In this document: in pieces, positions 6,019 to 58,227 of the stretch
How the letters are laid out: each line of letters starts with the position of its first letter
Numbering within the stretch: position 1 is the first letter of the stretch
From: a virus
Lineage: Duplodnaviria > Caudoviricetes
Length of the DNA: 64,000 nt
IMG/VR virus record: IMGVR_UViG_2713896750_000003
Location: 1-64,000 of that record
Strand: one strand, 5' to 3'
Made by a program: the position numbers and the translations under genes
The notes under the pieces: generated by a model
What the model saw: only the letters and a program-made list of their open reading frames with translations
The model's database searches: none
What the model was told of the DNA's origin: nothing

Positions 6019-6516
6019 CTACTCTTTTTCGGAGCGAACGTAACGAACAACCGTAAATGAGGCGTCGTTGTTTTCATCTTTATCTTGAGCAAAAAGCGTT
6101 TCCTTCTTGATGAAACCGTCAAGGAAGTCAGCCGGCATGCGAGTAAGAACACCTTCTTTGACGGTGTCATGAATATGAGTGACGATAAGCTCATCGATAA
6201 CGCCCATTTCAAGGAAGAGGCGATAGATTTCAGAACCGCCGATAACGTCAAAGTCGTTACCAAAGAAGCCAAATAATTGCTTTGTTCCGTCCACTACGTA
6301 AGCGTTCTCGATAGCATGTGGGTAACGCATCATGATGACGTTCTTGCGGTCTGGAAGCGGTTGACCGATAGAATCATAAGTCTTGCGACCCATGACTACC
6401 GTCCGCCCTTTAGTCAAAGCCTTGAAGTGCTTTAAATCATCACTTAAGTGGAAAGGAAGTTCGCCATTTTTAGCGATAACATGATCTTCGGTAAGAGCGA
6501 CAACTAATCGAATCAT
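6019..6516 (-). CDS. folA: Dihydrofolate reductase
   Basis: DLKHFK, VVMGRKTYDSIG, PLPDRKN, VIGGSEIY. Confidence 0.95.
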   Translation of the reverse strand: MIRLVVALTEDHVIAKNGELPFHLSDDLKHFKALTKGRTVVMGRKTYDSIGQPLPDRKNVIMMRYPHAIENAYVVDGTKQLFGFFGNDFDVIGGSEIYRLFLEMGVIDELIVTHIHDTVKEGVLTRMPADFLDGFIKKETLFAQDKDENNDASFTVVRYVRSEKE

Positions 6517-7355
6517 ACTGCTACTTTTCCTGTTAGTTTCGGGTGAGATGAATAACCAACGATTTCAACGTCGTCGTAGGTGAAGTCGTCGATTTCCTTG
6601 ATGTTCGGGTTAAGACGCACAGAAGCTTGTGATTTTGGCTTACGTTTAATCTGCGTCTGGATTTGTTTAAGATGGTTTTCATAGATGTGGACGTTGCCGC
6701 CAACATGAATCAATTCCACCGCCTCATGATTTGTGACTTGAGCGAGCATGTGAGCGAGAATGGAGTAAAATTCAAGATTGAACGGCAGCCCCAAGAAAAC
6801 ATCGACGCTACGTTGATACATTTGCAGACGCAGTTTGCGCTTACCGCCTTCCTCAGAAGCCGGCTCAGAATCAACCTGAAACATCATGTGGCAAGGTGGA
6901 AGCTGCATCTCATCTAAATCACCCACATTCCAAGCATTGACTAGAATGCGACGATCTGTCGGGGCATGGCGTAGTTTGTCGACCATGTTGGCAAGCTGAT
7001 CGATAACGATTTTCTTGACTCCCATACCCATTGGCTTAAATGTCGTCCATTTACGCCATTGAGCGCCATATACGGGACCAAGCTCCCCGTCTTCGCGAGC
7101 CCACTCATTCCAAATACGAACGCCATTTTCTTGCAGGTATTTAACGTTGGTGTCACCGGCAATCATCCATAAAAGCTCGTGAATGATGGATTTGTGGTGA
7201 ATCTCTTTTGTTGTAATAGCTGCAATTTTCCCACCTGACAGATCGAATCGCATTTGAGTGCCAAAGACCTGAGTGGTAGTAACACCGGTACGCTCGTGAG
7301 TCTCCACGTAGCCGTTGTCCAAGACATGCTGAGCGAGATCTAGGTATTGCTTCAT
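6513..7355 (-). CDS. thyA: Thymidylate synthase
   Basis: LGPVYGAQWR, LPPCH, YQRSVDVFLGLPFN, HIYENH. Confidence 0.97.
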   Translation of the reverse strand: MKQYLDLAQHVLDNGYVETHERTGVTTTQVFGTQMRFDLSGGKIAAITTKEIHHKSIIHELLWMIAGDTNVKYLQENGVRIWNEWAREDGELGPVYGAQWRKWTTFKPMGMGVKKIVIDQLANMVDKLRHAPTDRRILVNAWNVGDLDEMQLPPCHMMFQVDSEPASEEGGKRKLRLQMYQRSVDVFLGLPFNLEFYSILAHMLAQVTNHEAVELIHVGGNVHIYENHLKQIQTQIKRKPKSQASVRLNPNIKEIDDFTYDDVEIVGYSSHPKLTGKVAV

Positions 7356-7393
7356 GATTACCCTCTAGCTTGTTTGTTTAAGTTGTTTATATA

Positions 7394-7409
7394 TTAAGTG
7401 CTTACTTAA
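7394..7409. promoter_or_regulatory. Palindromic operator copy upstream of thyA
   Basis: TTAAGTGCTTACTTAA, one of about 18 copies. Confidence 0.7.
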
Positions 7410-7411
7410 AA

Positions 7412-7885
7412 TTAGGCAACTAAGAAAGGAACGCTGCCTTTGATTTTCCACATTCTTTGGTTGTCAGAGCCTCGAAATGGCTTGCTCGTCGGAAGTTCTT
7501 TAACATAGCGACCATCTATCACTACATCCACGTATTTTAGGAACTCGCAGCCTCGAAACCGGTCATCAAGGTCGTAGCCGGTCCAAAGCCAAATATCTTT
7601 ATCTGGATAACGCTCCTTAACAAGCTTACATATTCTTGTAGTGGTCTTGAGGTTGCGATGATGAAGTGGATCACCGCCACTGAGTGAAAGGCCGTCTCTA
7701 AATTCAAGATCATCTAGTATCTGATGAATGAGCGATTCGGTAATGGGGAATCCCGAGTTCGGGTTCCAAGTAGATTTGTTGTAGCATCCCTTACAACCAT
7801 GCGAACATCCAGTAAAAAAGAGGGTACATCGCACCCCCTTGCCGTTAACCAGATCGCAGTTTATATACTTTGCGTAATTACTCAT
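7412..7885 (-). CDS. nrdG: Anaerobic ribonucleotide reductase activase
   Basis: NGKGVRCTLFFTGCSHGCKGC, LSGGDPL, FRGSDNQR; adjacent to nrdD. Confidence 0.95.
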   Translation of the reverse strand: MSNYAKYINCDLVNGKGVRCTLFFTGCSHGCKGCYNKSTWNPNSGFPITESLIHQILDDLEFRDGLSLSGGDPLHHRNLKTTTRICKLVKERYPDKDIWLWTGYDLDDRFRGCEFLKYVDVVIDGRYVKELPTSKPFRGSDNQRMWKIKGSVPFLVA

Positions 7886-9741
7886 TGGTGCTTAACTCGT
7901 TTCATAACTTCTGACTGTTTACCCTTATTGAAAGGTCGAGAGTCGGGGTTACCAAGATAACCACAAACTCTACGTGTGACGGACAATCCCTCTCCTCGAT
8001 TGCCGCAGTGTGGACACTCAAACCCATGCTCTGTCGCTAGAGCCTCGCCTGACCAACCGCATGAACACCGATCTATAGGAGTATTAGTGCCAAAATAAGG
8101 GATGCGATCATAAGTGAAATCCCAAACTCGCTCTAAACCCTCAAGGTTGTGTTGCATATTTGGAAACTCGATATAATCAATGAAACCGCCATTGGCGAGG
8201 TGTGGGTAATCCTGCTCAAATTCGATTTTCTCAAAAGGGTTAACCTTCTTGAGCACGTCAAGATGAAAGCTATTGGTGTAGTAGTCTTTATCTGTTACAC
8301 CCTCAATGACTCCAAATTCTTTTACATCCAAAGAGCAGAAACGATCGCAAAGGCTTTCAGATGGCGTAGAGTAAAGTGAAAAGGCGTAACCAGTTTCTTC
8401 TTTAGCCTTGTCAACAATGGAACGTAGGCGAGCGACGATCTGAAGCCCAAGTTTTCGCTTGTCCGGAGAATCAAAAGCGTGACGTTTATCTTCTGGAAGT
8501 AGAGCGTTAACCGTTTCGTTAATTCCTATATATCCCAGAGATACAGAGGCTCGACCATGCTTAAATATTTCCGACACGGTATCTTCCGGATTAAGTCGAA
8601 CCCCAGCCGCGCCCTCACAATAGAGTATTGGAGCCACTGACGCTTTGACGTTATCAAGGCGCTTTATACGAAGCTTAAGAGCGTCGATAGATAGACTCGC
8701 GTATTTATCTAGTAGTTCGGTAAATTCATAAATGTCGGACGACATCAGGGCCAATCTAGGAAGGTTTAGAGAGACAACGCCCATGTTGTTACGACCGTCG
8801 TACTGCGGAACCCCAGATTCATCAAAATACTCACCAAGGAAAGAGCGACACCCCATTGGAGCCTTAAAACCACCTGTGACTTCGATTAGCTTGTCGTAGT
8901 TGAGGATGTCGGGATACATGCGTTCAGACGCGCATTTCAGTGCTAGTTTTTTGATGTCGTAGTTTGGGTCTCCGTGCTTAAAGTTTAAACCTTTCTTAAT
9001 GGTAAACACGAGCTTAGGAAAGATTGCGGTCTTTTTATTTTTACCAAGACCCGCCATTCGATTTTCCAAGATGGATTTTTGAATGAGACGCTCCTCCCAA
9101 GAGCGGCCAAGACCAAAATTCAATGTCACGAACGGTGTCTGACCGTTCGAGGTATGAAGCGTGTTGATCTCATATTCAAGGGACTGAAAGGCGTTGTATG
9201 TTTCTTTTTCGACCATCTGTGTGGCGAAAACTGCGGATTCTCGATCGTCACCTTTGAACCAAATAAGGCCAACCTCAAGCCACTTATCATAAGAAGCACG
9301 AACGTATGGAGCTAACACCTCATCGACGCGATTAATGGTCGTTCCGCCATAAATGTGAGAGGACACCTGAGCAATGATTTGAGCGGTAACCGCTGTCGCT
9401 GTGCTGATTGACTTTGGCTCCTCAATTTCAGCGTTGCCCATTTTGAACCCATTCGTTAGCATGCCCTTCAAGTCAATTAACATACAGTTAAACATCGGGA
9501 AAAACGGGCTGTAATCCAAATCATGCCAATGAATAAAGCCCTGTAAATGAGCGCTGGCTATCTTTTCAGGAATAAGCTTTTGTAGAGCGTACTCTTTGGA
9601 AACTACACCTGCTAACAAATCTCGTTGAGTTGGGATAATTCTGGCATCCTTATTGGCGTTCTCATTCATTACGGAGACATTTGATTGAGTGAACATCTCC
9701 TCGACAACGTCAAACATTCGCTCTTTATCAATTGTTCTCAT
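7882..9741 (-). CDS. nrdD: Class III anaerobic ribonucleoside-triphosphate reductase, no ATP cone
   Basis: ENANKD, HDLDY, PMGCRSF, YYTNSFH, glycyl radical motif RVCGYL. Confidence 0.97.
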   Translation of the reverse strand: MRTIDKERMFDVVEEMFTQSNVSVMNENANKDARIIPTQRDLLAGVVSKEYALQKLIPEKIASAHLQGFIHWHDLDYSPFFPMFNCMLIDLKGMLTNGFKMGNAEIEEPKSISTATAVTAQIIAQVSSHIYGGTTINRVDEVLAPYVRASYDKWLEVGLIWFKGDDRESAVFATQMVEKETYNAFQSLEYEINTLHTSNGQTPFVTLNFGLGRSWEERLIQKSILENRMAGLGKNKKTAIFPKLVFTIKKGLNFKHGDPNYDIKKLALKCASERMYPDILNYDKLIEVTGGFKAPMGCRSFLGEYFDESGVPQYDGRNNMGVVSLNLPRLALMSSDIYEFTELLDKYASLSIDALKLRIKRLDNVKASVAPILYCEGAAGVRLNPEDTVSEIFKHGRASVSLGYIGINETVNALLPEDKRHAFDSPDKRKLGLQIVARLRSIVDKAKEETGYAFSLYSTPSESLCDRFCSLDVKEFGVIEGVTDKDYYTNSFHLDVLKKVNPFEKIEFEQDYPHLANGGFIDYIEFPNMQHNLEGLERVWDFTYDRIPYFGTNTPIDRCSCGWSGEALATEHGFECPHCGNRGEGLSVTRRVCGYLGNPDSRPFNKGKQSEVMKRVKHQ

Positions 9742-14405: not shown

Positions 14406-14434
14406 TTTAAACCTCTTTGTAACTAACTACTTAC

Positions 14435-14863
14435 TTAATATTTGGAGTCCAGTGAATCATAATGCTCGCCCATTATTCGAATAACCTTTCGACACGTAAC
14501 TCTGTCAAAAAGACCGATATGACAGGACTCTTTGTCTATCCCTAGTTTGTCAGCAAGCCATTTGTAAGCCTCGCCTCGCTTCATTGAGCCATTTTTCCAA
14601 ATAGGGTCGAATGCGGCATGAGCGGCGCTTTTGTCTGCCCTTAATTTTGAATCTGCAAGTCGACCAAGAGGCACAATAGAATAGCCATGACATCCCACAT
14701 ACGCACGCTCATGCCCGTTTTCACAAAGATAGAAATTCTTTTTCGCCAAGTCCTTTCGGTGAGGGTAAATGACATCACCCTTTACCAAACGCGCTTCACT
14801 GCCGCAGTAAGGACAGTCAACAACTATGCGACCGTATGGCGGCTCTCGTCTGTATGCGTTCAT
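14435..14863 (-). CDS. DUF3268-like zinc-finger protein
   Basis: CPYCG, YVGCH, PLGRLAD, AHAAFDPIWK, AYKWLA, CHIG. Confidence 0.8.
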   Translation of the reverse strand: MNAYRREPPYGRIVVDCPYCGSEARLVKGDVIYPHRKDLAKKNFYLCENGHERAYVGCHGYSIVPLGRLADSKLRADKSAAHAAFDPIWKNGSMKRGEAYKWLADKLGIDKESCHIGLFDRVTCRKVIRIMGEHYDSLDSKY

Positions 14864-16145: not shown

Positions 16146-16182
16146 AACAACCTCTCGTCTGTTAACTTTATGATTAATTATA

Positions 16183-16198
16183 ATAAGTACTTACTTAA
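16183..16198. promoter_or_regulatory. Operator copy upstream of the sbcD operon
   Basis: ATAAGTACTTACTTAA. Confidence 0.65.
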
Positions 16199-34138: not shown

Positions 34139-34211
34139 GTTGTCCTCTGCTCATTTCATTTCTGCTTAACTGATAATGTATATTTTATTCTCAAGTTAAG
34201 GTGTATCAATA

Positions 34212-34227
34212 TTAAGTACTTACTTAT
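34212..34227. promoter_or_regulatory. Operator copy upstream of the cobS-dnaE operon
   Basis: TTAAGTACTTACTTAT. Confidence 0.65.
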
Positions 34228-45352: not shown

Positions 45353-45634
45353 TTACGCTGCCACTCGCGCATGCTCTGAAACTGTGAAGCTATTAATGCT
45401 GTGCTTAAAAAGAACGATATCCTCACCAGAGCTTTTCTCTTTAACGATCACTGAGAACTTATCAAAACCAACTACAACGCCATAAACGCGACCATCAGTT
45501 GTATTGAAGCGCATCTGATGACCTTCTCGCTTGGCTCGAATCAGTCGCATTTCGTGCGCATCAAGCTTGCGATTCTGCTGCCCTTTTTTCTTGTGTTCGA
45601 AAGGTTTGCGATGAGTGTTATTAGAAGTTTGCAT
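45353..45634 (-). CDS. hfq: Hfq-like Sm-fold RNA chaperone
   Basis: GVVVGFDKFSVIV (Sm1) and LFKHSI (Sm2 [YF]KHAI); CAGGAG RBS. Confidence 0.75.
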   Translation of the reverse strand: MQTSNNTHRKPFEHKKKGQQNRKLDAHEMRLIRAKREGHQMRFNTTDGRVYGVVVGFDKFSVIVKEKSSGEDIVLFKHSINSFTVSEHARVAA

Positions 45635-45693
45635 CGTTTTCTCCTGTGCGATTAACTTATGAATCAAATGATATTTGTTAGTTATAGGTAAGT

Positions 45694-46894: not shown

Positions 46895-46980
46895 AGCTTT
46901 CCTCCTAACGGTTAAGCAATGACAAGAATATCATGTGGGGAGAAGGTTGGACATATAAGGTTAAGTGATTACTTAAAAAC

Positions 46981-47002
46981 AAAGCCCCAAAAATGGGGCT
47001 TT
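46981..47002 (-). terminator. Terminator at the end of the tail-fibre/modification operon
   Basis: AAAGCCCC-AAAAAT-GGGGCTTT. Confidence 0.65.
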
Positions 47003-47016
47003 GTGATTAATTAGGC

Positions 47017-47175
47017 TTATTTTTCGCATCCTGGTCGATTAAGATCCGCCATACCCGGCTGCTCTATCGTGTGACAAGGAATGCCATCATAAGTGTTTAA
47101 CTTATCCCCTTTTACTGCACAGCCTGACATAAACATTGTCGCGGCGATAACAGTGATAGTTAGTAACTTTTTCAT
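47017..47175 (-). CDS. Small lipoprotein
   Basis: MKKLL leader, MSGC lipobox, GAGGAG RBS, two further Cys. Confidence 0.7.
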   Translation of the reverse strand: MKKLLTITVIAATMFMSGCAVKGDKLNTYDGIPCHTIEQPGMADLNRPGCEK

Positions 47176-47266
47176 TGTTTTCTCCTCGTTGTTGTCAATG
47201 TGAGATAAATTTAAAATCTGATTACTGGACTTAAAAGCTCGCTCCTTGGCTGCGTTCACTAACTTA

Positions 47267-48193
47267 TTAAGTCGATAGCGACTTCGCTCTCCTCATGAAC
47301 AAATCAAACATCTCTTTGTTCTTTTCAGTTTCGATACTGACCCAGCTATCCCCTAATCGCGCTTGAATCGCATCACAATGCGTCCAAAAGCTTTCAGTGT
47401 GCATTTGTGACGCAATAAGAGAGAGGCGGGCTACATCGTTCATCCAGGGCTTGGCTTGTCCGTGAAAGTGCTGAATAACGGCCTCTCCCATTGCCATGTT
47501 TGCCTCAAGTCTCTGATTCAGAGTCATCCATTGGCAATATGACTGATCAACCATGTAATTAAAGGTGTCGGGCAACAGCGTAATCTGACCGTCAAACACA
47601 TGATTGATGTAATCTTGATCGGTTAGAACAAAATTCATGCTGTCCGCGAGGGCGTCATGATTCGGTAGCTCAGAAATCTTGGCCATGTCAAAGACCATCA
47701 CACCTGAGTTCACATAATTGATAGGGTCGCTGCACAAATCACTTCTGCGTTCGAATTCATCATTGAGATGAGGGGGAAGTGGCTTGCCCGGCGGCCACCG
47801 TCTAGCAGGTATATCTGGCGCTGCAGCCACGAGTTTACCCTTAAGATCAAAATTAAGTAGCTCGGCAGGGTCTTTGTTAACGATGGTGTCGACATCAAAA
47901 TACACCACTCTGTCGTACTTGCCGATAAAGTGATGTAAAGCGAATATTTTCAGACTCATGCCATAGAAAAAAGAGTCTGGGAAATGCGTGTTGTTTTCTC
48001 TTTGAGTTCTGTCTGTTAAAAGAATCTCTGTAATGCTTGGGTACTCTTGCTTCAGTTCGGCGATCAGACTTTCATCATCTACAAACCAGTAAAAGTCTAC
48101 CTCATTAGTGCCTTTAGCTTCCCAAGAACTCATAAAAATATGGCCGAGCGGTACGTGTTGTTCGTTCGTACAGATATACACTGCCGTTTTCAT
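47267..48193 (-). CDS. Glycosyltransferase family 8
   Basis: RVVYFDVDTIV (DxD), YVNSGVMVFD, DQDYIN, HFHGQAKPW. Confidence 0.92.
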   Translation of the reverse strand: MKTAVYICTNEQHVPLGHIFMSSWEAKGTNEVDFYWFVDDESLIAELKQEYPSITEILLTDRTQRENNTHFPDSFFYGMSLKIFALHHFIGKYDRVVYFDVDTIVNKDPAELLNFDLKGKLVAAAPDIPARRWPPGKPLPPHLNDEFERRSDLCSDPINYVNSGVMVFDMAKISELPNHDALADSMNFVLTDQDYINHVFDGQITLLPDTFNYMVDQSYCQWMTLNQRLEANMAMGEAVIQHFHGQAKPWMNDVARLSLIASQMHTESFWTHCDAIQARLGDSWVSIETEKNKEMFDLFMRRAKSLST

Positions 48194-48201
48194 GATATCT
48201 C

Positions 48202-49362
48202 CTATTCAGTGTTTCTAGTTGGTATCAAGCTGTCGGTGAAAAGACGAAGTGTGTTTCTGGCCTGTGGAGTGATGGCATTAAACCTTCTTTCTTTCGCCTG
48301 AAAGTCGCCCCAAATCCGACCGTCAAATGGCTTAGAGAACTCATCAGTAATGCGGTCTGTCAACTTCCTGAAAGATTGGACGAGAACTTCCGACCAGGAG
48401 CTAGTGTCCGTATTGAGCATCTTTTTTAGTATCTTTTCGCGATAGACGACCGGCACATTGCACACTTGGTACTCCACAGGAAAAGAAACGTCGCCATGGT
48501 TTAGCCCGTCTAACCTTACCAAGCTGTCATTCAAAAACTGGTAAAACTCGGGCATGCTCGCGATGGTCAAGTTGGTGAGCGTCTGATTAACTCTAACTTC
48601 GGCATGTGGTATTTCAGAAGCAAGACGATTGTAATTTGCCACAATTCGCTTCGTATTACTTAACTCCCTTTGATGCTCATTCACTTCAGGCGTCCCATCT
48701 AAAGACAGCATATATTCCAAATTAGGGAACGCTCTTAGAATCTCAATAACGTCCTTTCCTCGACTCTTGAGACTCATCCCATTACTCAAGACTGAAATTC
48801 TGATCTTGTCTTTATGTGGGTACAACACGTCTAGAATATCCAGAAAAGAGTCGTCGTTCATTGGCTCCCCACCATGAAACACATAATGAGTCACCGTAGA
48901 GACAACGCTCTTGACGTAATCGATGGTAGCCGCTCTATTATCAATTCTCTTTGCTCCATCGCCAAACATCTTCCCATAACTGGTGCTGCAGCCGGACGAG
49001 CACATCCGGCATGCGAGCTGGCAAGTATTGTGAGGGCTAAGGTGAAGATATTTGGGATTATTCGGCATGCGCCCATCAGGAAGGCAATCATCGGGCTTAA
49101 AGTCAGGAAATTGAGCCATATAGTGGCCGATCAACTCAATTCCATTTTGTTTAAGTTGACCAGATACACACCGAATGCATCGCTTCGGCACCTCACCCTT
49201 TAACCATTTTGCTCTAGCTTCCATCCTATCTAGACTGTTCCAACCCTCATCGAGACTCTGACCATCTGTACCTTGGTCGTTACAGCACATTTTGACCGAG
49301 CCAAAAGCCCATTGAACGTTGGAGACGAACGGAGCTGGGCATATAAAGTCCACTTTCTTCAT
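48202..49362 (-). CDS. Radical SAM enzyme with N-terminal twitch/SPASM-like domain
   Basis: CPAPF...MCC...WNS...CIRC; CQLACRMC; HGGEP; ATGA overlap with upstream gene. Confidence 0.9.
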   Translation of the reverse strand: MKKVDFICPAPFVSNVQWAFGSVKMCCNDQGTDGQSLDEGWNSLDRMEARAKWLKGEVPKRCIRCVSGQLKQNGIELIGHYMAQFPDFKPDDCLPDGRMPNNPKYLHLSPHNTCQLACRMCSSGCSTSYGKMFGDGAKRIDNRAATIDYVKSVVSTVTHYVFHGGEPMNDDSFLDILDVLYPHKDKIRISVLSNGMSLKSRGKDVIEILRAFPNLEYMLSLDGTPEVNEHQRELSNTKRIVANYNRLASEIPHAEVRVNQTLTNLTIASMPEFYQFLNDSLVRLDGLNHGDVSFPVEYQVCNVPVVYREKILKKMLNTDTSSWSEVLVQSFRKLTDRITDEFSKPFDGRIWGDFQAKERRFNAITPQARNTLRLFTDSLIPTRNTE

Positions 49363-50609
49363 AATGTATCCACGCTGCAAGGTATGATGTTGTTAACGTG
49401 AGGAGCAAACATAGGGAAGACCTTCAGCATGTCTCTCCCCTCATGCTCATCTATAGTTCGATCAAGATACATTGCCTTGTTCCACTCAGAAGGTGAGAAC
49501 TTGCCCGCGAAGATCGCTCTCATAGCGGTATCTCTTAGCTCCATATAGTGCTCATTATCTATTTTTACGTTGCGAAGCTTTTTCAAAACCTCCCTCTTTA
49601 CATCATCTGGCAGCTGAAATGGCTGATAGTACTTGGGGTTATTGACGACGTTTAAGCTAGGCCAAATGCCTCTTGGGTGTAAATTTTCGTAGGCCCATTC
49701 TAAGTACTCGGCGAAATAAACGGCGGAGTAGTTGCTTAGCGTCGTATGAACCCCCACATAATGCCGCTCAGGAAGCTTACTCAATGCCTCATCAATGATT
49801 TTCATCGTTCTCTTTGTTCTACCTCGAAGCCGGATATAGTCATTGGCCTCTGGAATAGAATCGATCGAAAAAACGGCATGAACATCCTTAAAATCCTTAA
49901 GAACGTCCCAAACATTCCTTCCGTCTGTCATGGTTGAAAACGAACCATTGGAAAGAAAGTTGATTTTGCATGTGTCTTTGATCGGCATTAGGGCATCTAT
50001 AATGGCTGGAAAGTTTTTAGCCTGAATCGGGTCACCGCCGTGCAGCACCACTTCTCGCAACGTCTCATAGTTGCTTGTAATGATGCGCAAGTCTTCTTCG
50101 TGATCGGTCTCCGCAACAAACGTCTTTCGATCAAAAGGAGGGAGAATACCAGGATCATTTGTTAGCCCGATTCGCTCAGTAATGCTTAATTTGGTCGAGG
50201 AGATCTGTGGCGTACACATCCTACATGCCATGTTGCATTTGTTGCTTACACCAAGCGCTAGTTGGGTCAAAGGCACTCCACTCATTGAGCCATCTTCGTT
50301 GTACAGATGCTTGTACTTCAAGAAGTTCTCAACAAAGAAGGGTCTGTCCTCCAACAGGTAAAACTTAGAGTGCGACGTTGGCGAGTTTAGACATGTCTTA
50401 CAACCCTCAGGTAACGCATCGTAATTATGCTCCCATAATGCCTTTCTCGTTTGCTTGGCTACATCACCATTCCAGTATTCGTCAAACGGCATTTTTCTTG
50501 TTTCGCCCCACATCTCACAACATGGCGAAGTTCTCTGCGAGATTTTAAAAAGGCCAATAAATGGAGCAAGACACATAGGCAATTTCTCTTTAGGCTCAGA
50601 CAATTTCAT
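49359..50609 (-). CDS. Radical SAM enzyme with N-terminal twitch/SPASM-like domain
   Basis: CLAPF...PCC...WNG...CKTC; CNMACRMC; HGGDP. Confidence 0.9.
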   Translation of the reverse strand: MKLSEPKEKLPMCLAPFIGLFKISQRTSPCCEMWGETRKMPFDEYWNGDVAKQTRKALWEHNYDALPEGCKTCLNSPTSHSKFYLLEDRPFFVENFLKYKHLYNEDGSMSGVPLTQLALGVSNKCNMACRMCTPQISSTKLSITERIGLTNDPGILPPFDRKTFVAETDHEEDLRIITSNYETLREVVLHGGDPIQAKNFPAIIDALMPIKDTCKINFLSNGSFSTMTDGRNVWDVLKDFKDVHAVFSIDSIPEANDYIRLRGRTKRTMKIIDEALSKLPERHYVGVHTTLSNYSAVYFAEYLEWAYENLHPRGIWPSLNVVNNPKYYQPFQLPDDVKREVLKKLRNVKIDNEHYMELRDTAMRAIFAGKFSPSEWNKAMYLDRTIDEHEGRDMLKVFPMFAPHVNNIIPCSVDTL

Positions 50610-51960
50610 TTAACCAAGCCTCCTCGCAGTTTTTAGCGTACTCATCAACGTCCAATCCTCGATATTCAAAAGTGTCACCATAGGCTTCTGAAAGCGTCTG
50701 AACACATTCAAAAATGTCATTTGGATCTACCTTGATATGAGGGCAGGGAAAGTCCTTCGACCAAGGCGCGTTGCCGTTAACAACACAAGGAATGTGAACA
50801 CTCGCTTCAAGAATTGCATAGGGCATTATTTCAATATCGCTCAGGTGTAAAAGGACGCGATGTTGACGAATAATGCCGGGTAGGAAATCGTTAGGTACGT
50901 TTGTGAGCTGACGATAACCCTGAACGCCAGCCTCATGAGCCATTTCTTTTAGCGTTCGCCCGTCTCGCCCCAAATCTTGTCCGCAAACTACGGTCACAGG
51001 AAGACCGGTTATCGCCAAAATCTCAAACATTAGATCGAAATTTTTTCGCTCGTAGTTTGAGCCAATAATAAGTACCCCTTTTGTCCCATTTGTCGTCCTA
51101 TAGACCACTCTCGGCTCATAAAAGGGTTCGGGCAGAAGCTTGACATTTGCCTCTGGAATTAGAGATTCCAGTTGCGACTTTACGCCGATGGTTTGGGTTC
51201 CGATTTCGAACTTTATATCTTTGAGTAGTCGCAAATAATCGATGACCAAGTCACTTGAGAAATCAGTGAAGTTAGAGTCAGGGCTCATGATGTCACCAAT
51301 ATGCGTGTATGCGATTCTGGGGATGCCAAGAGCGTCAAACTCATCATTCATCGAATCAAGAGCTAAAGTCGATGCGTAGCTGTGCGAGACGACTAGAGAA
51401 GGGGTGAAATCTCTTAGATATTGCGCAAGACCCTGCTCAAATGTTCTAGATCGAACTTCCTTCTCAAACTCAAAAGAATGAACAGGAAGTTCTTTGCTGT
51501 TCTCGGCAAACATTGGCATAGAGAAAAGGCTGACATGGCTAAGATCGATTCCATTAGGGAATGCCACATCTTCCCCGTCAATATCGGTTACATCGACAAT
51601 AACATCTAACATTAAGGCGTTTTCCGCGCACATCTGTGCAAAATGCTTTATGAATGTGTAAATGCCGGACGCATTGCCAATAAAAAAGCTATCGAGGAGA
51701 AAAGCAACACGCTTATCCCCCTTCTTAATTGGTACATCTTTAAGAAGAGTATTCACTTTTTTATACCCCTTTAACGCTTCGCTTTCAGAAATCTGCCAGC
51801 TAATATCGTTTAACGTGAAGTGGTACTGACCAACATCATCCACCCCTTCAAAACAAGATTCATCGATTACCTGCTTGCTTGATGTATCAAACAAGGAAAG
51901 TTTTCTCCTTGCGCAGTAAAGCGCTAGTTCCTGATTGCCAGTTAAGCTCTGTTTTTGCAT
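50596..51960 (-). CDS. GT-B fold glycosyltransferase, GT4-like
   Basis: SGIYTF loop, IIGSNYERKN, E-x7-E motif EIMPYAILEA. Confidence 0.7.
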   Translation of the reverse strand: MQKQSLTGNQELALYCARRKLSLFDTSSKQVIDESCFEGVDDVGQYHFTLNDISWQISESEALKGYKKVNTLLKDVPIKKGDKRVAFLLDSFFIGNASGIYTFIKHFAQMCAENALMLDVIVDVTDIDGEDVAFPNGIDLSHVSLFSMPMFAENSKELPVHSFEFEKEVRSRTFEQGLAQYLRDFTPSLVVSHSYASTLALDSMNDEFDALGIPRIAYTHIGDIMSPDSNFTDFSSDLVIDYLRLLKDIKFEIGTQTIGVKSQLESLIPEANVKLLPEPFYEPRVVYRTTNGTKGVLIIGSNYERKNFDLMFEILAITGLPVTVVCGQDLGRDGRTLKEMAHEAGVQGYRQLTNVPNDFLPGIIRQHRVLLHLSDIEIMPYAILEASVHIPCVVNGNAPWSKDFPCPHIKVDPNDIFECVQTLSEAYGDTFEYRGLDVDEYAKNCEEAWLNEIV

Positions 51961-52523
51961 ACAATTGTCACCGAACTGCTGTAGACGTTTGTTGTGGACG
52001 TAATGCCGTTTGAGTTGGAGAACCCTAAACTGGTGTAGTCATACCTTCCCAAAATGGTGTAACAGGTATGAGCGTGAGAGATCCTCACCTGAAAATATTG
52101 AAATGAGGCGTTTCTGATGATGTTCCCATACTCATCTTTTGCACCGCCCGACCAGTATCCGCTGATTTTTACTTCATAACCGTTCCATCGAAATACGGCC
52201 CAGTCACCTTCAACTGTCCCCGTACCTCCCCAGCCTCCAAATGCTCGTGTGTTTGGTGCTCGCCATCCAGACACAATGGCGATTGATGTCCGCGTCTCTT
52301 TAAAGGCAATGGCATACTGATCGAACTTTGGATTGTTGAAATGAGAGAGCGACAGATTGCCGCTCGTAGGGATATCGCTGCCATTGGATTGCTTGGCGTA
52401 TCGAGGCACCCCCTGATGTGGGTCAATGACACTGGTTTTTGGTCTCAGCTCGGAAAGGGACAGACTACTGCTGTCCCCAGAGCCGAAAAACAAAGATCGA
52501 ATTGACGAGAAAGATAGAGCCAT
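51942..52523 (-). CDS. Tail fibre tip / gp38-like adhesin
   Basis: LSFSSIR..F, LSLSEL, IPTSGNLSLSHF attachment-type motif; Gly/Trp-rich C-half; TAATG overlap with the fibre gene. Confidence 0.55.
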   Translation of the reverse strand: MALSFSSIRSLFFGSGDSSSLSLSELRPKTSVIDPHQGVPRYAKQSNGSDIPTSGNLSLSHFNNPKFDQYAIAFKETRTSIAIVSGWRAPNTRAFGGWGGTGTVEGDWAVFRWNGYEVKISGYWSGGAKDEYGNIIRNASFQYFQVRISHAHTCYTILGRYDYTSLGFSNSNGITSTTNVYSSSVTIVCKNRA

Positions 52524-55500
52524 TACATTCTACCTCCTTCCAAAGCATCAACTCGATCCGACAACTCCTTAATAGCCTCTACTAAAAGACCAACGGTGTT
52601 ACCGTAAGCCACGGAAAGTAGACCATCGTCGCCATGTCTCTTAACCGCCTCAGGGAGAACTCTCTCAAGCTCTTGAGCGATTAGGCCAGTTTCAACAAAC
52701 TCTCTGTAATCCGAGGCGCTCTTATCAAGCTTGTTAGCTTTTATATACGTGTAGCCGCTCAACGACTTCACCTTATTAAGAGCATCTGAGATGACCTTGA
52801 TCTCTCTTTTAAGACGGCGGTCAGAAAGACCAGAGATGTCACCACTTGCCGAGATGTTACCGCCCGCTGTTATGTTGTAACTAGATACAATTGAGCCTGT
52901 CGATTGCAGGGTATTCACATGCACATCGGACAGACGCTTGTCTTGAGTCCAACCGCTTGGGCTAGCCTGAGCCGGAATGATTCTCCAGTCCGTGTACATG
53001 TTGCTCTGATTGATTCTTTCTATGGTGTAGTAGAGACCGGTGCCGGACACCGCATACACCTCAAATGAATGGCCGCCATACACACGATCAGATGAGTTGT
53101 ACATTGTTCTCACATGGTAAAAGCCTGGTCCGCCATAAGAGTTCCCCACTAACTGAGTTATCTCGCTCTGCCCATGACTGTTTGTGATCAAGAACTTAGC
53201 GTATGTATGTTTACCACCGGTATAGTCGCCGATCGTGATGATGCAAGCACCATGATCTCCACCATTGGTGTCAGCGATCTTGTACCAGCCAGTAGAAGGA
53301 ACATTAAAGTAACGTCTAGGCTCTACCTGAGTGAAGTTAGAACTGTCCTTACCATCAAGCTTGTCAGAGTTGCTCACAGAAACAGAAAGTGTTCTGTTTG
53401 ATGAGCCATCGATGGATACCGAGCCGCTCGCGTCGCCGCTTAACGATATCGTTCTTGCCGACGCCCACTTACTTGCACTAGATGCGTTACCGGATAGACT
53501 TCCAGAAAACGCCGGAGCGGTAACCGTGTGAGCAAACACAGCCGTACCGTTCTCTCGAATAGTGAAGTCCGCAGCACTAGAGCCGTTATAACGGAATGCG
53601 AGATCGCCGTTCTGGTGATCAAGCTGCCAATAGTTGTCATTGTAAGTACTGTCCATCAGATTCAATTGAACATTGGTGTGTCTGATGGTTAACTGGCCGT
53701 TAATTGTCGATGAGGAATCCGAGCGGACAAACTGGCTCGCTTGTAGACCATCAAGTTTATCAGCATCAAGACCACTTCCTGAACCATCGTTTCCAGCATG
53801 CCAAATATTGTGGCCGCGATAGGTAATTGAGTTGGAATTAAAGCCTAACAACGTGGTAGCGTTGCCGCCGGTCATATAACGGAAGTAATAACCTGAGGCA
53901 TCCCCGTCCGCGTCGTTGTTATGAGTGAAATAGATGCTACTGTCATCAACATGAACCGAAACATTATCGTCTTGACCCGTCTGCGATGAAGAGTTTCGTT
54001 GCAGTCGGAAAGGCGTACTTCCTTCATTGGTGTTGACGTTCAACTCAGACGTGTTTAGGGCTCCAGTCACAGTACCGCCAGAAGATCGCACAAATCGAGC
54101 GTCCGCTTCAGATTCGGTATAGTAACGACCGTCATGAGTGTGTGAGTCATTAGCTACACTGACGCTCATAGAGACGTTCTCAGAGCCATCCCACGATACA
54201 GAGCCGCTCGCGTCTCCTGTCAGAGTTAATGTGCGAGCATTTGTCCATTTATCAGCTATTGGATGGTAGTTATCCGTAAACAGTCTCTCCCAAGCAAGCG
54301 TCCCCACTCGGTGATGAATTGAGCCATGAGAGTTAAAGGACAGTTGATGCGTGTACGTAGAGCCAGAGTGCGCATTAAAGGTGAAAAGTGCATTCGCATT
54401 ATTCACCCCGCCTTCAGGCTTGTTGCTTGTTTCCGAATTGTACGTTGTGTAACTGAAACCTCCCTCTTCCGAGAACAGGCGACTGTTTAGATCTATAGTG
54501 CTACGAACGCCCTTCATCATCACGGAGGTTTCGTCGGTAAACACAAGCTTGTTGCCACCCAGAGACAGATCTCCTGACAAAGCATCTCCAGATTTTTTCA
54601 GGTATCTGTCGTCATGTGTGTGACTGTCGTTGTTTACCGATGCGCTTAGAACAACATCAGACGATCCGTCAATCGAAACAGAGCCCGTTAGATCACCCGA
54701 TAGAGTTATCGTTCTCGCTACAGTCCACTTGTCGGCGTTTGGATGGTAGACGTCATTAAATAACTTATGTGAGGTGCTGTCATTAACAACCCAAACAGGG
54801 TTCGATGAAGATGCGAGAGAAAGTCCATCTCGACCAATCGAACCAAAGTAAGCATGCCCATTGTGCAGTTGAACAAGCGGCTTACTGTCTGTCGCACCAA
54901 TTGCCCCAGATAGAACGTTGTCAGTGTGAGAGCTGGTTTTACTTAGTGCTCCAACATCACTCGCAGTTGGCTTGTTATTTGTACTGTAAAGATATTCCCA
55001 ATCGCTCCATTCATCCGAGTATCTAGTTCGGAACGCAAATCGGCCGGAGCTCGATGACGTGCCATAGGGAATGACGAACTGCGTTAGGTTGCCTCTGTTA
55101 TAGGAGAAGTTCTGAATGTAGCCATATCCAGTCTTATTGTCTGGACGATTGGCTGAATCCCCTCTAAACAATCTCGCATAAATGCCGGGCTCGTCGATTG
55201 CATCAAAGTCAACCGTCAAAGAGCTGCCTGCGTTACCTACAGCAATGTAAGGAATCGACTTGATTAGACCAGTATTGTCAAAAGTTACCCTGTCATCAAT
55301 TTGACTCTGTAAGGATGTCTCCATAGAGTCAACGTCAGATTTTTTGTAGTAGCGACTATCGGCAAACGATGCATAATTGCCGCTGTGCATGACCGAGTGC
55401 TTGGATGTGCCATCAAAGTACTCAAAAGCCCCTTGGTGATCGAACTGCCAATACTTTCCGCTGTTTGTTGACTCAAAGCGCAACTCATTACCAGCAGAGC

Positions 55501-58153
55501 TAGATGTCGAGCCAACATACTTCAGAAGCCAAGCGTATGTTTGGTTACCAAAGTAGATATAGGAATCTTGGCCGCCTAATCTATCGCTTAGGCCATCTTC
55601 TAGGCCACCATCAATTCTTAAAACTTCGCCGATAGCGTTGAGCTTCAGCTTTTCACTCAATGAACCGCCTTCCAGAGACAAATACTGGCTGTCGTGAGTG
55701 TGAGAATCGTTATTTACAGATACAGAAATTGAGGCATTGGCTGAGCCATCCCACGAAACGGAGCCAGTGACATCCCCCGTCAGTGTCAATGTTCTCGCTG
55801 TTGTCCACTTGTCTGCATTAGGGTGATAACCATCATGGAAGACCTTTTGTCCCATGAAGTTAAACTCACCATTAGTTCTAAGAGTAAGAACCTCTTTTCG
55901 AACGCCATCAGACGGCGTGTAGCCTTCAAAGACGATTCCCCCATCAACCTGACCATTCGCGCCGTTAGCATCAATCATTCGGAAAATGCGAGCGTCATAG
56001 TAGTTAGAACCAGGGAAGTAATCTCCTTGACTGATAATGTCTAATCCCTCTCCCACCTTAAAGCCAGCAGAGCCTGATGTGATCTTGCCACTTACGGTCA
56101 GGTTGCCGCTCATTGTGTCAGAGACGTCAGATCGCAAGAACTGAGTTGAATCTAGACCGTCCAACTTGTCTGAATCCGCCGCTTTCTCTGTCTTGCCCAG
56201 TTTTGACGCGTCAAGAGCAGAGTACGCGCCATTAACCGCGTTGCGCGTTGCTAGATTGGTGCCAGATGAGGTATAGATGTCAGATGCAGACCAGTTGGGA
56301 ACATTGTTAAGGCCAATGTCGCTTTTACTAAGGACAACGTTGCCAATCTTGCCGTTTACGCTTGCTACCTTGTCGGTGTTGTCAACCTTGTACCAAACAT
56401 CGCTATCCATGTCCCAATAGAGATCGTCACCAGCATCAACAGTAAGCGTCCCCTGAGGTCCGCTCATAGTCCCGCCTACCGTAACGCGATAGTAGTCGGG
56501 CATTTCAGGATCGCTAGGTACAGGGAAGTTACCAGAAGACGCATCCCACTTGCCTTTAAATTGAACCGATCTAGTTGCAATTGAACTGGCTTGAGTTGCA
56601 GCCTGCTCTGCTCGCTCGGCAGCGCTTTCAGCTATAGATGCAGATGAGGCAGAGCTATCTCGATATGACTTAGCTGTATTCTCAGATGCCTTGGATGCAG
56701 TTTCTGATGCCTTTGCTGCAATCTCTGAGTTCTTGGCTGCTGTTTCTGATGCCTTAGCTGCAACCTCCGATGCCTTAGCCGCAACTTGAGAGGCTTCGGC
56801 GGCATCTTCCGATGCCTTAGCTGCAACTTTTGACGCTTCACTGGATGCAGCAGAGCTTGCCGATGACTCAGCAGAAGCCGCAGCCTCATCTTTTGAATCA
56901 GAAGCAGATGAAGCAAAAGATGCCGCTTCATCACGGCTAACCCCGGCATTGGTTTCTGAGGTTTTAGCGGCAGAGGCTGATGCGTCTGAAGCCTGACGAG
57001 AGTTTTCGCTGGCCATTGCAGAGTTTGCAGCCGCGTTTTTACTAGAAATAGCCGAAGCTGCACTATCAGAAGCAGATGAGGCGTGTGCTGCGGACGCCGT
57101 CTCGGAGTCATTTGCGGCTGCCGCACTATTCGCAGCATCCAGCTTGCTCTGATTTGCCGAGTTAGCAGCGTTTTCAGCCGCTACCTTATTGGCGTTAGAC
57201 GCAGCTTCAGACGCAGCTGCCGCAATAGCGGATGAATCGGACGCCTGACGAGAAGTCTCGCTCTCAGAAGCGGAATCCGCCGCCGACCCTGCGGCTGCAG
57301 CGGCATTTAGTTCATGTGTTTTAGCATTGTCTTCTGATTGCTTGGCGGCGACCTGACTTGCAGATGCGGAGTTTCTACTTTCAAGAGCAAACGCTGCATC
57401 GTTCGCCGCCTTTATTGCGTGATGTTTCGCAGAGAACTTTCCGCTCTCGACCTCTACATTCTCGCCCTGCTCGGCCCACTGTTTAGCCTTATGCTCGCTC
57501 GCTAGACTCGCATTTTCTGAGGACTTTGCATTAGTTTCGGAGGTTTTCGCTTTGTTTTCTGAGCTCTTAGCGGCAACGGCGCTAGCTTCAGAAGCTTGGC
57601 GAGACAATTCAGAATCATTTGCGGCATCTAAAGCGCTTAGTTCAGAGGCCTTGGCATTCTGCTCTGAATCTCTTGCAGCAGATGCAGCTGCCTGTGACTC
57701 TTGGTTAGAGACTTCACTTTCATTCGCACTAGCTGCCGAGCTGTTCTTGTTCGCCAGCGACTGCGCTTCGTGATTAGATGCATTTATTTCTGCCTGTTTT
57801 GCAGCGCCTTCCGAAGCACTAGCCGCAGAAACTTTTTCATCTAAAGTAGCCTCGATTGAATTTGAGTAATCCAATGCCGCAGACGCCTTGCTAAGCGCCT
57901 CGTTAGCTGTAGGAAGGGCATTCTCTACAGCGGCCACTGCTTGATCCATTCGATATTGAATCTGGGAGGGTGAATCAACGAGAACCTGATTGCCAGTACT
58001 GTCTGACAGGTATCGTTTGCCCTTGTTGTCTGTCGCATCGTCTAATGTTTCGTTAGGTGCGGCCAACCACTCTCGTTGCTGGTCAACAAAGGCTTGCCAA
58101 TTATTGATCACATCGCCAAGCCTTTGATACAAATCAGTCGCAGTATTCGACAT
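52523..58153 (-). CDS. Long tail fibre with Ala/Ser-rich stalk and C-terminal S74 intramolecular chaperone
   Basis: Stf-like AAKASE repeats, VASVNGKIGNV, repeated ADKW..ARTLTLTGD, SDRRLKREI...GLIAQE...LVEAIKEL. Confidence 0.92.
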   Translation of the reverse strand: MSNTATDLYQRLGDVINNWQAFVDQQREWLAAPNETLDDATDNKGKRYLSDSTGNQVLVDSPSQIQYRMDQAVAAVENALPTANEALSKASAALDYSNSIEATLDEKVSAASASEGAAKQAEINASNHEAQSLANKNSSAASANESEVSNQESQAAASAARDSEQNAKASELSALDAANDSELSRQASEASAVAAKSSENKAKTSETNAKSSENASLASEHKAKQWAEQGENVEVESGKFSAKHHAIKAANDAAFALESRNSASASQVAAKQSEDNAKTHELNAAAAAGSAADSASESETSRQASDSSAIAAAASEAASNANKVAAENAANSANQSKLDAANSAAAANDSETASAAHASSASDSAASAISSKNAAANSAMASENSRQASDASASAAKTSETNAGVSRDEAASFASSASDSKDEAAASAESSASSAASSEASKVAAKASEDAAEASQVAAKASEVAAKASETAAKNSEIAAKASETASKASENTAKSYRDSSASSASIAESAAERAEQAATQASSIATRSVQFKGKWDASSGNFPVPSDPEMPDYYRVTVGGTMSGPQGTLTVDAGDDLYWDMDSDVWYKVDNTDKVASVNGKIGNVVLSKSDIGLNNVPNWSASDIYTSSGTNLATRNAVNGAYSALDASKLGKTEKAADSDKLDGLDSTQFLRSDVSDTMSGNLTVSGKITSGSAGFKVGEGLDIISQGDYFPGSNYYDARIFRMIDANGANGQVDGGIVFEGYTPSDGVRKEVLTLRTNGEFNFMGQKVFHDGYHPNADKWTTARTLTLTGDVTGSVSWDGSANASISVSVNNDSHTHDSQYLSLEGGSLSEKLKLNAIGEVLRIDGGLEDGLSDRLGGQDSYIYFGNQTYAWLLKYVGSTSSSAGNELRFESTNSGKYWQFDHQGAFEYFDGTSKHSVMHSGNYASFADSRYYKKSDVDSMETSLQSQIDDRVTFDNTGLIKSIPYIAVGNAGSSLTVDFDAIDEPGIYARLFRGDSANRPDNKTGYGYIQNFSYNRGNLTQFVIPYGTSSSSGRFAFRTRYSDEWSDWEYLYSTNNKPTASDVGALSKTSSHTDNVLSGAIGATDSKPLVQLHNGHAYFGSIGRDGLSLASSSNPVWVVNDSTSHKLFNDVYHPNADKWTVARTITLSGDLTGSVSIDGSSDVVLSASVNNDSHTHDDRYLKKSGDALSGDLSLGGNKLVFTDETSVMMKGVRSTIDLNSRLFSEEGGFSYTTYNSETSNKPEGGVNNANALFTFNAHSGSTYTHQLSFNSHGSIHHRVGTLAWERLFTDNYHPIADKWTNARTLTLTGDASGSVSWDGSENVSMSVSVANDSHTHDGRYYTESEADARFVRSSGGTVTGALNTSELNVNTNEGSTPFRLQRNSSSQTGQDDNVSVHVDDSSIYFTHNNDADGDASGYYFRYMTGGNATTLLGFNSNSITYRGHNIWHAGNDGSGSGLDADKLDGLQASQFVRSDSSSTINGQLTIRHTNVQLNLMDSTYNDNYWQLDHQNGDLAFRYNGSSAADFTIRENGTAVFAHTVTAPAFSGSLSGNASSASKWASARTISLSGDASGSVSIDGSSNRTLSVSVSNSDKLDGKDSSNFTQVEPRRYFNVPSTGWYKIADTNGGDHGACIITIGDYTGGKHTYAKFLITNSHGQSEITQLVGNSYGGPGFYHVRTMYNSSDRVYGGHSFEVYAVSGTGLYYTIERINQSNMYTDWRIIPAQASPSGWTQDKRLSDVHVNTLQSTGSIVSSYNITAGGNISASGDISGLSDRRLKREIKVISDALNKVKSLSGYTYIKANKLDKSASDYREFVETGLIAQELERVLPEAVKRHGDDGLLSVAYGNTVGLLVEAIKELSDRVDALEGGRM
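56680..56830 (-). repeat. 21-bp tandem repeats encoding AAKASE(T/V) heptads
   Basis: Repeated GATGCCTTAGCTGC-type units. Confidence 0.7.
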
Positions 58154-58205
58154 ATTTCAGTACCTCTTAACGTTAAGTGAGCTCCATTATAGGAAATAAA
58201 ATAAC

Positions 58206-58227
58206 ATTAAGTAAGTACTTACTTAAT
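58206..58227. promoter_or_regulatory. Perfect 22-bp palindromic operator upstream of the tail fibre
   Basis: ATTAAGTAAGTACTTACTTAAT. Confidence 0.75.

Follow-up and report, generated by a model that had tools for sequence, protein, structure and literature searches.

The closest described counterpart of the locus analysed here is the hypervariable 'host recognition cluster' of pelagimyophages. In the portions of Zaragoza-Solas et al. 2020 (PMC7029224) available to us, this cluster consists of tail fibres, glycosyltransferases and radical S-adenosylmethionine (SAM) cassettes, GT8 is its commonest glycosyltransferase family, and modification of the host O-chain is the function that the authors favour. 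Our locus lies in the first 64,000 nucleotides (the window, throughout) of the 103,169-base virus record IMGVR_UViG_2713896750_000003, estimated to be 94% complete; the element is well supported as an SSU5-type phage-plasmid of Vibrio of ~103 kb. In its tail fibre operon two glycosyltransferase genes and two radical SAM genes (rSAM-A and rSAM-B) form a cassette. We propose, tentatively and at somewhat less than an even chance, that this cassette puts a radical-edited glycan on the host-recognition proteins of the virion.

As far as the accessible text describes them, the clusters of pelagimyophages and cyanomyophages resemble the window in having soluble enzymes and in bringing together fibres, GT8 and radical SAM proteins. 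However, those clusters belong to large lytic T4-like phages that infect SAR11 and cyanobacteria, and they extend over tens of kb, whereas the window cassette has four genes in a temperate phage-plasmid. Furthermore, the radical SAM proteins carry no family assignment in the part of that article at hand, while the window pair belongs to NF033640. The preliminary description of this DNA stated that no described system has such a composition. Given that the published clusters, in the text available, do hold fibres, GT8 and radical SAM proteins, that statement was too strong. The enzyme families are known and their fibre-linked combination is already in print; it is the minimal four-gene form on a temperate phage-plasmid that is new. 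Where the pairing of glycosyltransferases with radical SAM proteins near tail fibres has been noticed in print, its function is, in the accessible passages, proposed only. In another article, as far as available, the name 'antibiotic synthesis gene' is given to a radical SAM gene of a cyanophage with no test of that role (PMC12801897).

Glycosylation systems with related enzymes can also be set beside the window. Freeman et al. in 2023 are said to have described virion glycosylation in mycobacteriophages, and the glycosylation of serine-rich-repeat adhesins uses GtfA/B together with GT8 enzymes. In both, soluble transferases act in the cytoplasm on a structural or adhesive protein, whereas here the glycoprotein is only proposed; we know of no radical SAM enzyme that takes part in either. 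The outer core of lipopolysaccharide (LPS) is made with WaaG-type GT4 and WaaI/J/O/R/T-type GT8 enzymes, which are soluble or peripheral and work at the cytoplasmic face. These, as well as WbbM and LgtC, belong to the same two transferase families as the window enzymes, but the similarity is weak, and the window genes are phage-borne and stand in a fibre operon. In Gtr seroconversion a temperate element, whose gtr genes are often close to its tail genes, alters host surface glycans and excludes superinfection. However, Gtr systems need GtrA, a GT2 enzyme (GtrB) and a flippase, none of which was matched in the record, whereas the window enzymes are all soluble. As for the radical step, BtrN and anSME combine a radical SAM core with an auxiliary Fe-S cluster domain, and since BtrN acts on an aminocyclitol, oxidation of a sugar-type substrate is plausible chemistry. 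The auxiliary domain is C-terminal in BtrN and anSME but N-terminal in the window pair. BtrN is absent from the PDB matches of the pair at E <= 1, and there is no significant sequence match to BtrN or anSME.

Every gene between 46.9 and 58.3 kb lies on the minus strand, and the fibre gene, a gene for a protein of 193 amino acids (aa), the four enzyme genes and a lipoprotein gene are one tightly coupled unit (Table 1). From the fibre to the last open reading frame (ORF) the junctions measure -1, -19, -14, -4, +8 and +7 nucleotides (nt). The fourth is an ATGA common to rSAM-A and rSAM-B when the latter starts at ATG 49362, and it becomes -22 with the upstream TTG; the ATG is favoured because a 98%-identical homologue (P0001) has 386 aa. 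The last gene starts more likely at ATG 47175 than at GTG 47259, given its GAGGAG ribosome-binding site and lipoprotein-type N-terminus. When the coordinates were re-read, the ORFs, overlaps and 8-nt gap of the preliminary description proved right, and so did its bracketing of the operon by a putative operator and a terminator, namely the palindrome with TATAAT at one end and the terminator with the 11-bp stem at the other.

Table 1. Features of the tail fibre operon and its control sites, in window coordinates
Feature	Position	Strand	Basis
Palindrome	58207-58226	-	perfect 20-bp TTAAGTAAGTACTTACTTAA, 15 nt upstream of TATAAT (58186-58191)
Tail fibre, 1876 aa	52523-58153	-	PF03903, PF13884, phrog_11011
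Orphan protein, 193 aa	51942-52523	-	no family match
GT4-type GT-B glycosyltransferase (predicted), 454 aa	50596-51960	-	PF00534 matches of homologues, EX7E, AlphaFold2 model
rSAM-A, 416 aa	49359-50609	-	NF033640, PF04055
rSAM-B, 386 aa from ATG 49362 (392 aa from TTG 49380)	48202-49362/49380	-	NF033640, PF04055
GT8 glycosyltransferase, 308 aa	47267-48193	-	PF01501
Predicted lipoprotein, 52 aa	47017-47175	-	lipobox-like FMSGC, GAGGAG
Intrinsic terminator	46979-47004	-	11-bp stem with 6 GC pairs, 4-nt loop, T-run

Palindrome and TATAAT fall in the 79-nt gap before the fibre gene, and we infer that the palindrome is a putative operator- or promoter-like site heading the fibre operon. Matches of this type with up to three mismatches number four in the window, against 0.01 expected, and a looser pattern adds a fifth related palindrome at 41.1 kb. 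All five TAAGTAAGTACTTA-type palindromes (14420-14437, 16180-16197, 34209-34226, ~41110 and 58207-58226) are intergenic and upstream of minus-strand gene blocks. The motif has the appearance of an operator or promoter element used throughout the genome of the phage-plasmid, and its presence upstream of other gene blocks suggests that the fibre operon may be co-regulated with them. The terminator is the strongest of the seven terminator-like sites in 45.3-59 kb. Generic scans were not enriched over shuffled sequences, either for promoters (10 vs 19.1) or for terminators (7 vs 11.2), and the promoter scan gave no promoter-like site ahead of the cassette on its strand, its one weak match (9/12) being inside rSAM-B.

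The enzyme assignments made earlier from the letters alone hold up against profile and structure comparison. The GT8 protein matches PF01501 with 83.9 bits (cut-off 24.3) and carries DVD at residue 100 and HFHGQAKPW at 242. The 454-aa protein, which had been called GT4-like, itself matches no Pfam family at E <= 0.01; 30 of the 50 homologues in its alignment match PF00534, and the EX7E pair E377/E385 is at least 90% conserved among the 50 sequences. Its AlphaFold model, with a predicted local distance difference test (pLDDT) of 84.7, has a two-Rossmann GT-B fold, and Foldseek places it near the retaining GT4 enzyme MshA (1.3e-12), with further matches to BshA, WbnH, PglA, LPS glycosyltransferases and sucrose-phosphate synthase. 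As modelled, the protein is a GT-B-fold, GT4-type retaining glycosyltransferase. It has an extra N-terminal part of ~80 residues. Its family is rare, with 98 representative clusters among 1.84 billion proteins, and among the viral models of BFVD the top named match is a Vibrio phage nt-1 protein. Single-query searches of IMG/VR with either transferase gave nothing useful, and the GT4-type alignment found only the KVP40 record there and nothing in metagenome contigs.

Both radical SAM enzymes, likewise recognised before, pass the cut-offs of PF04055 (36.2 bits for rSAM-A and 32.1 for rSAM-B, vs 29.5) and of NF033640 (177.7 and 174.4, vs 170). They keep the CX3CX2C motif, as C125-x3-C129-x2-C132 in rSAM-A and C120-x3-C124-x2-C127 in rSAM-B. 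N-terminal cysteines stand at 13, 30/31, 70 and 73 in rSAM-A and at 14, 32/33, 68 and 71 in rSAM-B. The motif and four N-terminal cysteine columns (C14, C32, C68 and C71 of rSAM-B) are invariant in alignment A1, and a paralogue at a related locus has a SPASM match (PF13186) at residues 8-76. By these comparisons both enzymes are members of NF033640 (N_Twi_rSAM) with a predicted N-terminal auxiliary-cluster domain; their secondary NCBIfam matches are SPASM peptide maturases. No reaction can be transferred to the pair, because NF033640 is a family name only and our literature search found no paper naming 'NF033640' or 'N_Twi_rSAM'. Literature queries that combined radical SAM either with twitch and phage or with KVP40 returned, in titles and the first parts of abstracts, nothing on NF033640 function, the KVP40 papers being genome descriptions.

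The four enzymes are free of hydrophobic segments of the kind expected in a transmembrane helix or signal peptide. Only three 19-residue windows exceed a hydrophobicity of 1.6, all of them in the GT4-like protein and in a predicted Rossmann strand. Profiles for GtrA (PF04138), GT2 (PF00535) and Wzx (PF01943) gave 0 matches in the whole record. Hence we agree with the preliminary description that the enzymes lack signal peptides and transmembrane segments and that no flippase or GtrAB is present. The missing flippase does not point away from LPS, since the GT4 and GT8 enzymes of the LPS core, which work at the cytoplasmic face, are soluble too. Genes for sugar-nucleotide synthesis were not seen in the cassette.

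In our opinion, these genes are most economically read as a glycan-type pathway in which radical SAM enzymes do the tailoring. In lytic growth the cassette genes would be co-transcribed with the fibre gene. Both transferases, soluble Leloir enzymes of the retaining type (GT-B with EX7E in one case, GT-A with DXD in the other), would draw on host nucleotide sugars and put a short glycan on a cytoplasmic acceptor before or during assembly. This acceptor would most likely be a host-recognition protein of the virion, either the fibre or the 193-aa protein. Each radical SAM enzyme would hold a SAM cluster and, in the N-terminal four-cysteine domain, an auxiliary cluster, and the pair would edit the glycan or its attachment site by hydrogen-atom abstraction, the outcome being an oxidation, an epimerisation or a C-C or C-X link.

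The layout itself supports the proposal of a radical-edited glycan on the virion: the genes overlap or are spaced by 7-8 nt, and they stand between a palindrome plus TATAAT and a strong terminator. Further support appears to come from the solubility of the enzymes together with the lack of GtrA, GT2 or Wzx in the record, from the recurrence of such a cassette behind the fibres of the unrelated phages L018 and L079, from the fibre modules (44-76% identical) that Vibrio phages with all four orthologues share with the window, and, as far as its text was available, from the clusters of PMC7029224 that join fibres, GT8 and radical SAM cassettes. The palindrome common to other gene blocks, the accessory nature of the cassette and its intactness in further assemblies also speak for the proposal. 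Of the earlier claim of a radical-SAM-tailored glycan, what stands is that the enzymes are real, soluble, co-oriented and translationally coupled to the fibre gene; the hint from a Ser/Ala-rich stalk and the novelty are weakened or unsupported, and the linkage to fibres is missing in K566 and K567.

The recurrence deserves some detail. L018 is a 175-kb viral contig with two ~587-aa proteins, an S74 fibre, three small genes, GT2, GT8, GT8, rSAM and GT8; a nuclease and helicases follow, the cassette lying between the S74 fibre and replication genes. L079, a myovirus contig, has a Gly-rich protein, an S74 fibre, DUF6734, a methyltransferase, a GT2-like protein, two GT7-lectin fusions, four rSAM genes and the tail sheath, and its cassette lies between fibre and sheath, within the structural block. 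Both viral contigs are unrelated to the window phage, and in both there are glycosyltransferases between the fibre and the rSAM genes. The two fusions of L079 (L079:7090-9941) are tandem proteins that join GT7 (beta-4-galactosyltransferase-like) to a Laminin_G_3/ConA-like lectin domain.

Among 50,697 phage records, tblastn with rSAM-B matched 40, all of Vibrio, and with the GT4-type protein 41, namely 40 of Vibrio and one Synechococcus phage; the Vibrio records are KVP40-like T4-type phages. Orthologues of all four enzymes occur in Vibrio phages K566 and K567 (OZ196521.1, genes 0303-0309): K566_0303 corresponds to rSAM-A (reciprocal best match, 328 bits), K566_0306 to rSAM-B (234 bits) and 0307 to the GT4-type enzyme, while 0304 and 0309 are GT8. 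These phages have host genus and fibre modules in common with the window phage, but they have two more rSAM paralogues, a second GT8 and another gene order.

Relatives of the rSAM pair are far more widely spread. They are encoded by 214 of the 352 stretches matched in IMG/VR, 269 of the 389 in metagenome contigs and 80 of the 267 in genome contigs, so that NF033640 is an abundant family, often in tandem arrays of 2-7 copies (at least two paralogues in 62/83 loci, up to seven). Neighbourhoods were compared over 237 loci, 80 of them viral (IMG/VR), 77 from genomes and 80 from metagenomes. The genes most often found beside them are additional rSAM genes, N-terminal-SPASM and B12-binding types among them; a QueC-like protein, a carbamoyltransferase, an SDR, a methyltransferase and a RecA-like protein are also encoded nearby. 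That N-twitch radical SAM enzymes with soluble glycosyltransferases make up a widespread phage system, which would place radical-edited glycans on receptor-binding proteins, is a possibility that we entertain with appreciable doubt.

Three side observations concern this family. Among cellular genomes, relatives are concentrated in predatory Bdellovibrio-like bacteria: of the genome loci (L088-L164), 43/77 are named Bdellovibrio-like or Oligoflexia, and the rSAM genes often stand there in arrays that also hold rSAM genes of further types and one for a QueC-like protein. Two genome loci (L092 and L120) also carry S74-domain fibre-like proteins. Fused multi-rSAM proteins, as predicted from domain matches, occur in viral contigs: the stretches L011:317-7004 and L040:9092-15776 hold giant ORFs of ~1412-1417 and 813-820 aa with two or one radical SAM domains.

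Several observations, given here and in the following paragraphs, weigh against a target on the virion. A search for the cassette next to fibre genes elsewhere, suggested in the preliminary description, has a divided outcome, since the linkage recurs in L018 and L079 whereas in K566 and K567 the cassette is not linked to the fibres. There it lies at ~160-171 kb and the fibres at 196.5-206 kb, ~26 kb apart, with NAmPRT, nrdAB and a topoisomerase in between. In KVP40 (KVP40.0260-0274) three rSAM genes and the GT4-type gene stand near nadV/nrdA, away from the fibres, and no GT8 is detectable. An S74 fibre is within reach of rSAM in 2/80 viral, 2/77 genome and 0/80 metagenome loci, counts that refer to recognisable S74 fibres, so adjacency was not detectable in most loci rather than shown to be absent. 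On these counts, a general link of the rSAM family with S74 fibres was rejected as a rule. A GT8 or a member of the window GT4-like family stands beside rSAM in 1/237 loci, namely L018. Five other fibre seeds, run over the rSAM loci, recovered only their own loci, and three large ORFs upstream in rSAM loci gave no informative PDB match.

The candidate acceptors also have to be considered. In the fibre, a Ser/Ala-rich stalk makes up the N-terminal part, an intramolecular chaperone of the Peptidase_S74 type forms the C-terminus, and there are T4 gp36-type repeats. Its Pfam matches are PF03903 (4.3e-18) and PF13884 (9.6e-12), and it matches long-tail-fibre PHROGs, with phrog_11011 at 3.6e-183. 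The modules shared with K566 belong to the distal subunits of its long tail fibre, and the S74 domain is also common to both. Over residues 101-500 of the stalk, Ser makes up 16-25% and Ala 26-38%, which had been taken as a hint of a glycan site. This hint is weakened, because the stalk matches ordinary phage tail-protein PHROGs and is missing from the fibres of L018 and L079; a Ser-rich stalk as common substrate was rejected for the latter reason.

The 193-aa gene occupies the position of the SSU5 fibre 'adhesin' gene, and it had been labelled an adhesin. This label is not sustained. The protein has no Pfam, PHROG or NCBIfam match and no similarity to the SSU5_022 'adhesin' in BLASTP (E = 37), and its AlphaFold2 model (pLDDT 36.9) is too poor for a structure search. 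It has two homologues only, no tblastn match in phages and no IMG/VR relative. Its leads in the protein atlas all score below 0.9, a Gp38_N-bearing cluster coming only at rank 16 (0.81).

A rather doubtful alternative, which nevertheless has to be taken seriously, is remodelling of the host envelope. The GT4-type and GT8 enzymes would add sugars to the LPS core or to an undecaprenyl- or otherwise lipid-linked glycan, on the cytoplasmic side of the inner membrane, and the rSAM enzymes would edit these sugars. A glycan receptor of the phage itself or of its competitors would be masked in this way, leading to superinfection exclusion or sparing the progeny adsorption to debris, and the lipoprotein at the end of the operon would likewise mask a protein receptor. 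Indeed, the nearest solved relatives of the GT8 protein are WbbM (1.6e-09; O-antigen) and LgtC (2.1e-04; lipooligosaccharide), and its best NCBIfam match, a weak one, is an LPS 3-alpha-galactosyltransferase (29.7 bits vs cut-off 461). WbnH, PglA and LPS glycosyltransferases are among the structural matches of the GT4-type protein, and GT4 with GT8 is the enzyme pairing of the LPS outer core, although we know of no radical SAM step or partner in LPS core synthesis. The unlinked cassette of K566 also fits a target other than the fibre. In the passages of PMC7029224 available to us, the pelagimyophage authors propose O-chain modification against co-infection.

The neighbourhood of the cassette points in part the same way. 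In SSU5 the order is J, fibre, 'adhesin', outer-membrane protein, membrane protein, Cor exclusion protein and then lysis genes, and the window cassette fills the slot of the outer-membrane, membrane and Cor exclusion genes. The predicted lipoprotein that closes the operon suggests a host-envelope theme. As a candidate exclusion lipoprotein of the Cor/Llp type, it has the position of SSU5 Cor and a lipobox-like FMSGC, which ends a hydrophobic N-terminus (MKKLL...FMSGC), but no Pfam match; a feature similarity of 0.91 in the atlas to the small outer-membrane lipoprotein clusters DUF4223/YhfL is a lead only. Given that isolates apparently carry the element as a plasmid, host conversion could pay. 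However, with no promoter-like site of its own and an operon headed by a palindrome common to other gene blocks, expression of the cassette in the carrier state is doubtful, and no membrane component, flippase or GtrA/B was matched. In L079, moreover, the cassette is inside the structural block of a myovirus, where a late change of the host surface would be of little benefit. The depositors' label 'PagP' for a K566 neighbour was left unused as support for LPS, since at E <= 1 that protein matches no PDB sequence. The sequence alone does not separate virion modification from remodelling of the host surface.

It is unlikely, in our opinion, that the cassette acts on another soluble target, be it a small molecule (such as a metabolite glycosylated from a nucleotide sugar), a peptide or protein outside the virion (akin to a ribosomally synthesised and post-translationally modified peptide, RiPP, or else the 193-aa or a host protein) or an RNA nucleoside. 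The solved structures nearest to the rSAM enzymes are indeed peptide maturases of the SPASM type (8vpo at 1.5e-09, ChlB and CteB), the likeness being weak and confined to the core, but no precursor-peptide-like gene or RiPP recognition element was matched. (8vpo is cited once in the available text of PMC10878394, on cyclopropyl synthases.) The structural matches of the GT4-type protein include the small-molecule transferases MshA, BshA and sucrose-phosphate synthase. In KVP40 and Bdellovibrio-like bacteria the rSAM genes stand beside QueC-like genes and other rSAM types and not beside glycosyltransferases, yet the record holds no QueC or TGT. Homologues of the 193-aa protein (P0105, 46% identical) and of the GT4-like enzyme (P0008) are both recorded on a 6364-bp contig elsewhere, which may also speak for such a target. 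A glycan on a recognition component accounts better for the presence of two glycosyltransferases and for a linkage to fibres that is seen in three unrelated phages.

DNA hypermodification, with a modified base of the phage DNA being glycosylated and edited by the enzymes, is very improbable: DNA-modification pathways with glycosyltransferases and radical SAM enzymes are known in phages and the cassette of K566 and KVP40 stands among nucleotide-metabolism genes, but a canonical thymidylate synthase (NF002497, 350.2 bits vs cut-off 327), DHFR and NrdD/NrdG are encoded in the record, which has no TGT/DpdA-type or QueC match, no hydroxymethylase-type enzyme was seen, and the window cassette sits in a fibre operon.

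The nature of the element is relevant to all of these readings. Its DnaB is nearest to those of nickie-, RHEph10- and SSU5-type phages (38% identity to SSU5) and, among plasmids, to those of Aeromonas plasmids of 103-135 kb (66% identity). Its gene order J, fibre, ..., Hfq, DnaB, primase is syntenic with SSU5-group elements, and SSU5 is called a phage-plasmid in the accessible part of PMC7969092. The closest backbone relative is the Aeromonas caviae plasmid pKAM376_1 (circular, 103,107 bp), where the order is J, fibre, 163 aa, 81 aa, 92 aa, p262-like, Hfq and DnaB; its counterparts of gpJ, p101, p262, Hfq and DnaB are 42%, 28%, 62%, 38% and 66% identical. Neither the 193-aa protein nor the lipoprotein nor any of the four enzymes has a counterpart there. 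Since the closest backbone relative is without the cassette, the latter is, to judge from this comparison, accessory cargo of a variable host-recognition module.

Two observations on the backbone may be added. The record has two ParB_N matches, in adjacent genes at 84402-85672 of the record, outside the window, which fits a plasmid-type partition or a related function. A Hfq-like gene at 45353-45667 lies just upstream of dnaB; its Pfam Hfq score of 25.8 bits is just under the cut-off of 27, and the syntenic pKAM376_1 gene, 38% identical, is annotated as RNA chaperone Hfq.

Two isolate assemblies of ~5.3 Mb contain the complete 16-kb stretch from 44 to 60 kb, on contigs of 102,267 and 100,808 bases respectively, and the whole element is on one 103,249-base contig of an assembly from a seawater RNA library, which is not evidence of transcription. 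These three assemblies differ from the window at 150-251/16,001 positions, and in them the cassette is intact, without an indel inside. The sole indel over 44-60 kb in these three is at window position 46583, where 1 or 2 bases are left out, just outside the cassette and near the start of an ORF for a 101-aa membrane protein. The 90% cluster of the GT8 protein comprises 15 variants, which are spread over about 40 contigs that almost all measure 102-107 kb, and its named members are from Vibrio parahaemolyticus, among them a 96%-identical relative. Megablast of 47000-52600 against phage and plasmid collections found no near-identical DNA. A GT8 protein of Vibrio fluvialis, 52% identical to that of the window, is on contigs of 663-684 kb, so that a chromosomal or integrated location may apply.

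With four enzymes only, cultured carriers of Vibrio parahaemolyticus and orthologues in the isolated phages K566 and K567, the cassette is experimentally tractable. Whichever target is right, the result would be the first function for NF033640, a large enzyme family, and would bring to light a new way either of modifying virions or of masking receptors. If the glycan is indeed on the virion, it would represent a new post-translational modification that tunes or protects host recognition, and the four-gene version would be a minimal and genetically tractable model for it, and also for the first NF033640 reaction.

Elsewhere in the window, a nucleotide-metabolism block at 6019-9741 encodes DHFR, a canonical ThyA, NrdG and NrdD. 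The DHFR scores far below the cut-offs of the trimethoprim-resistance Dfr models (86 bits vs 360), and hence it is by its scores an ordinary phage DHFR.

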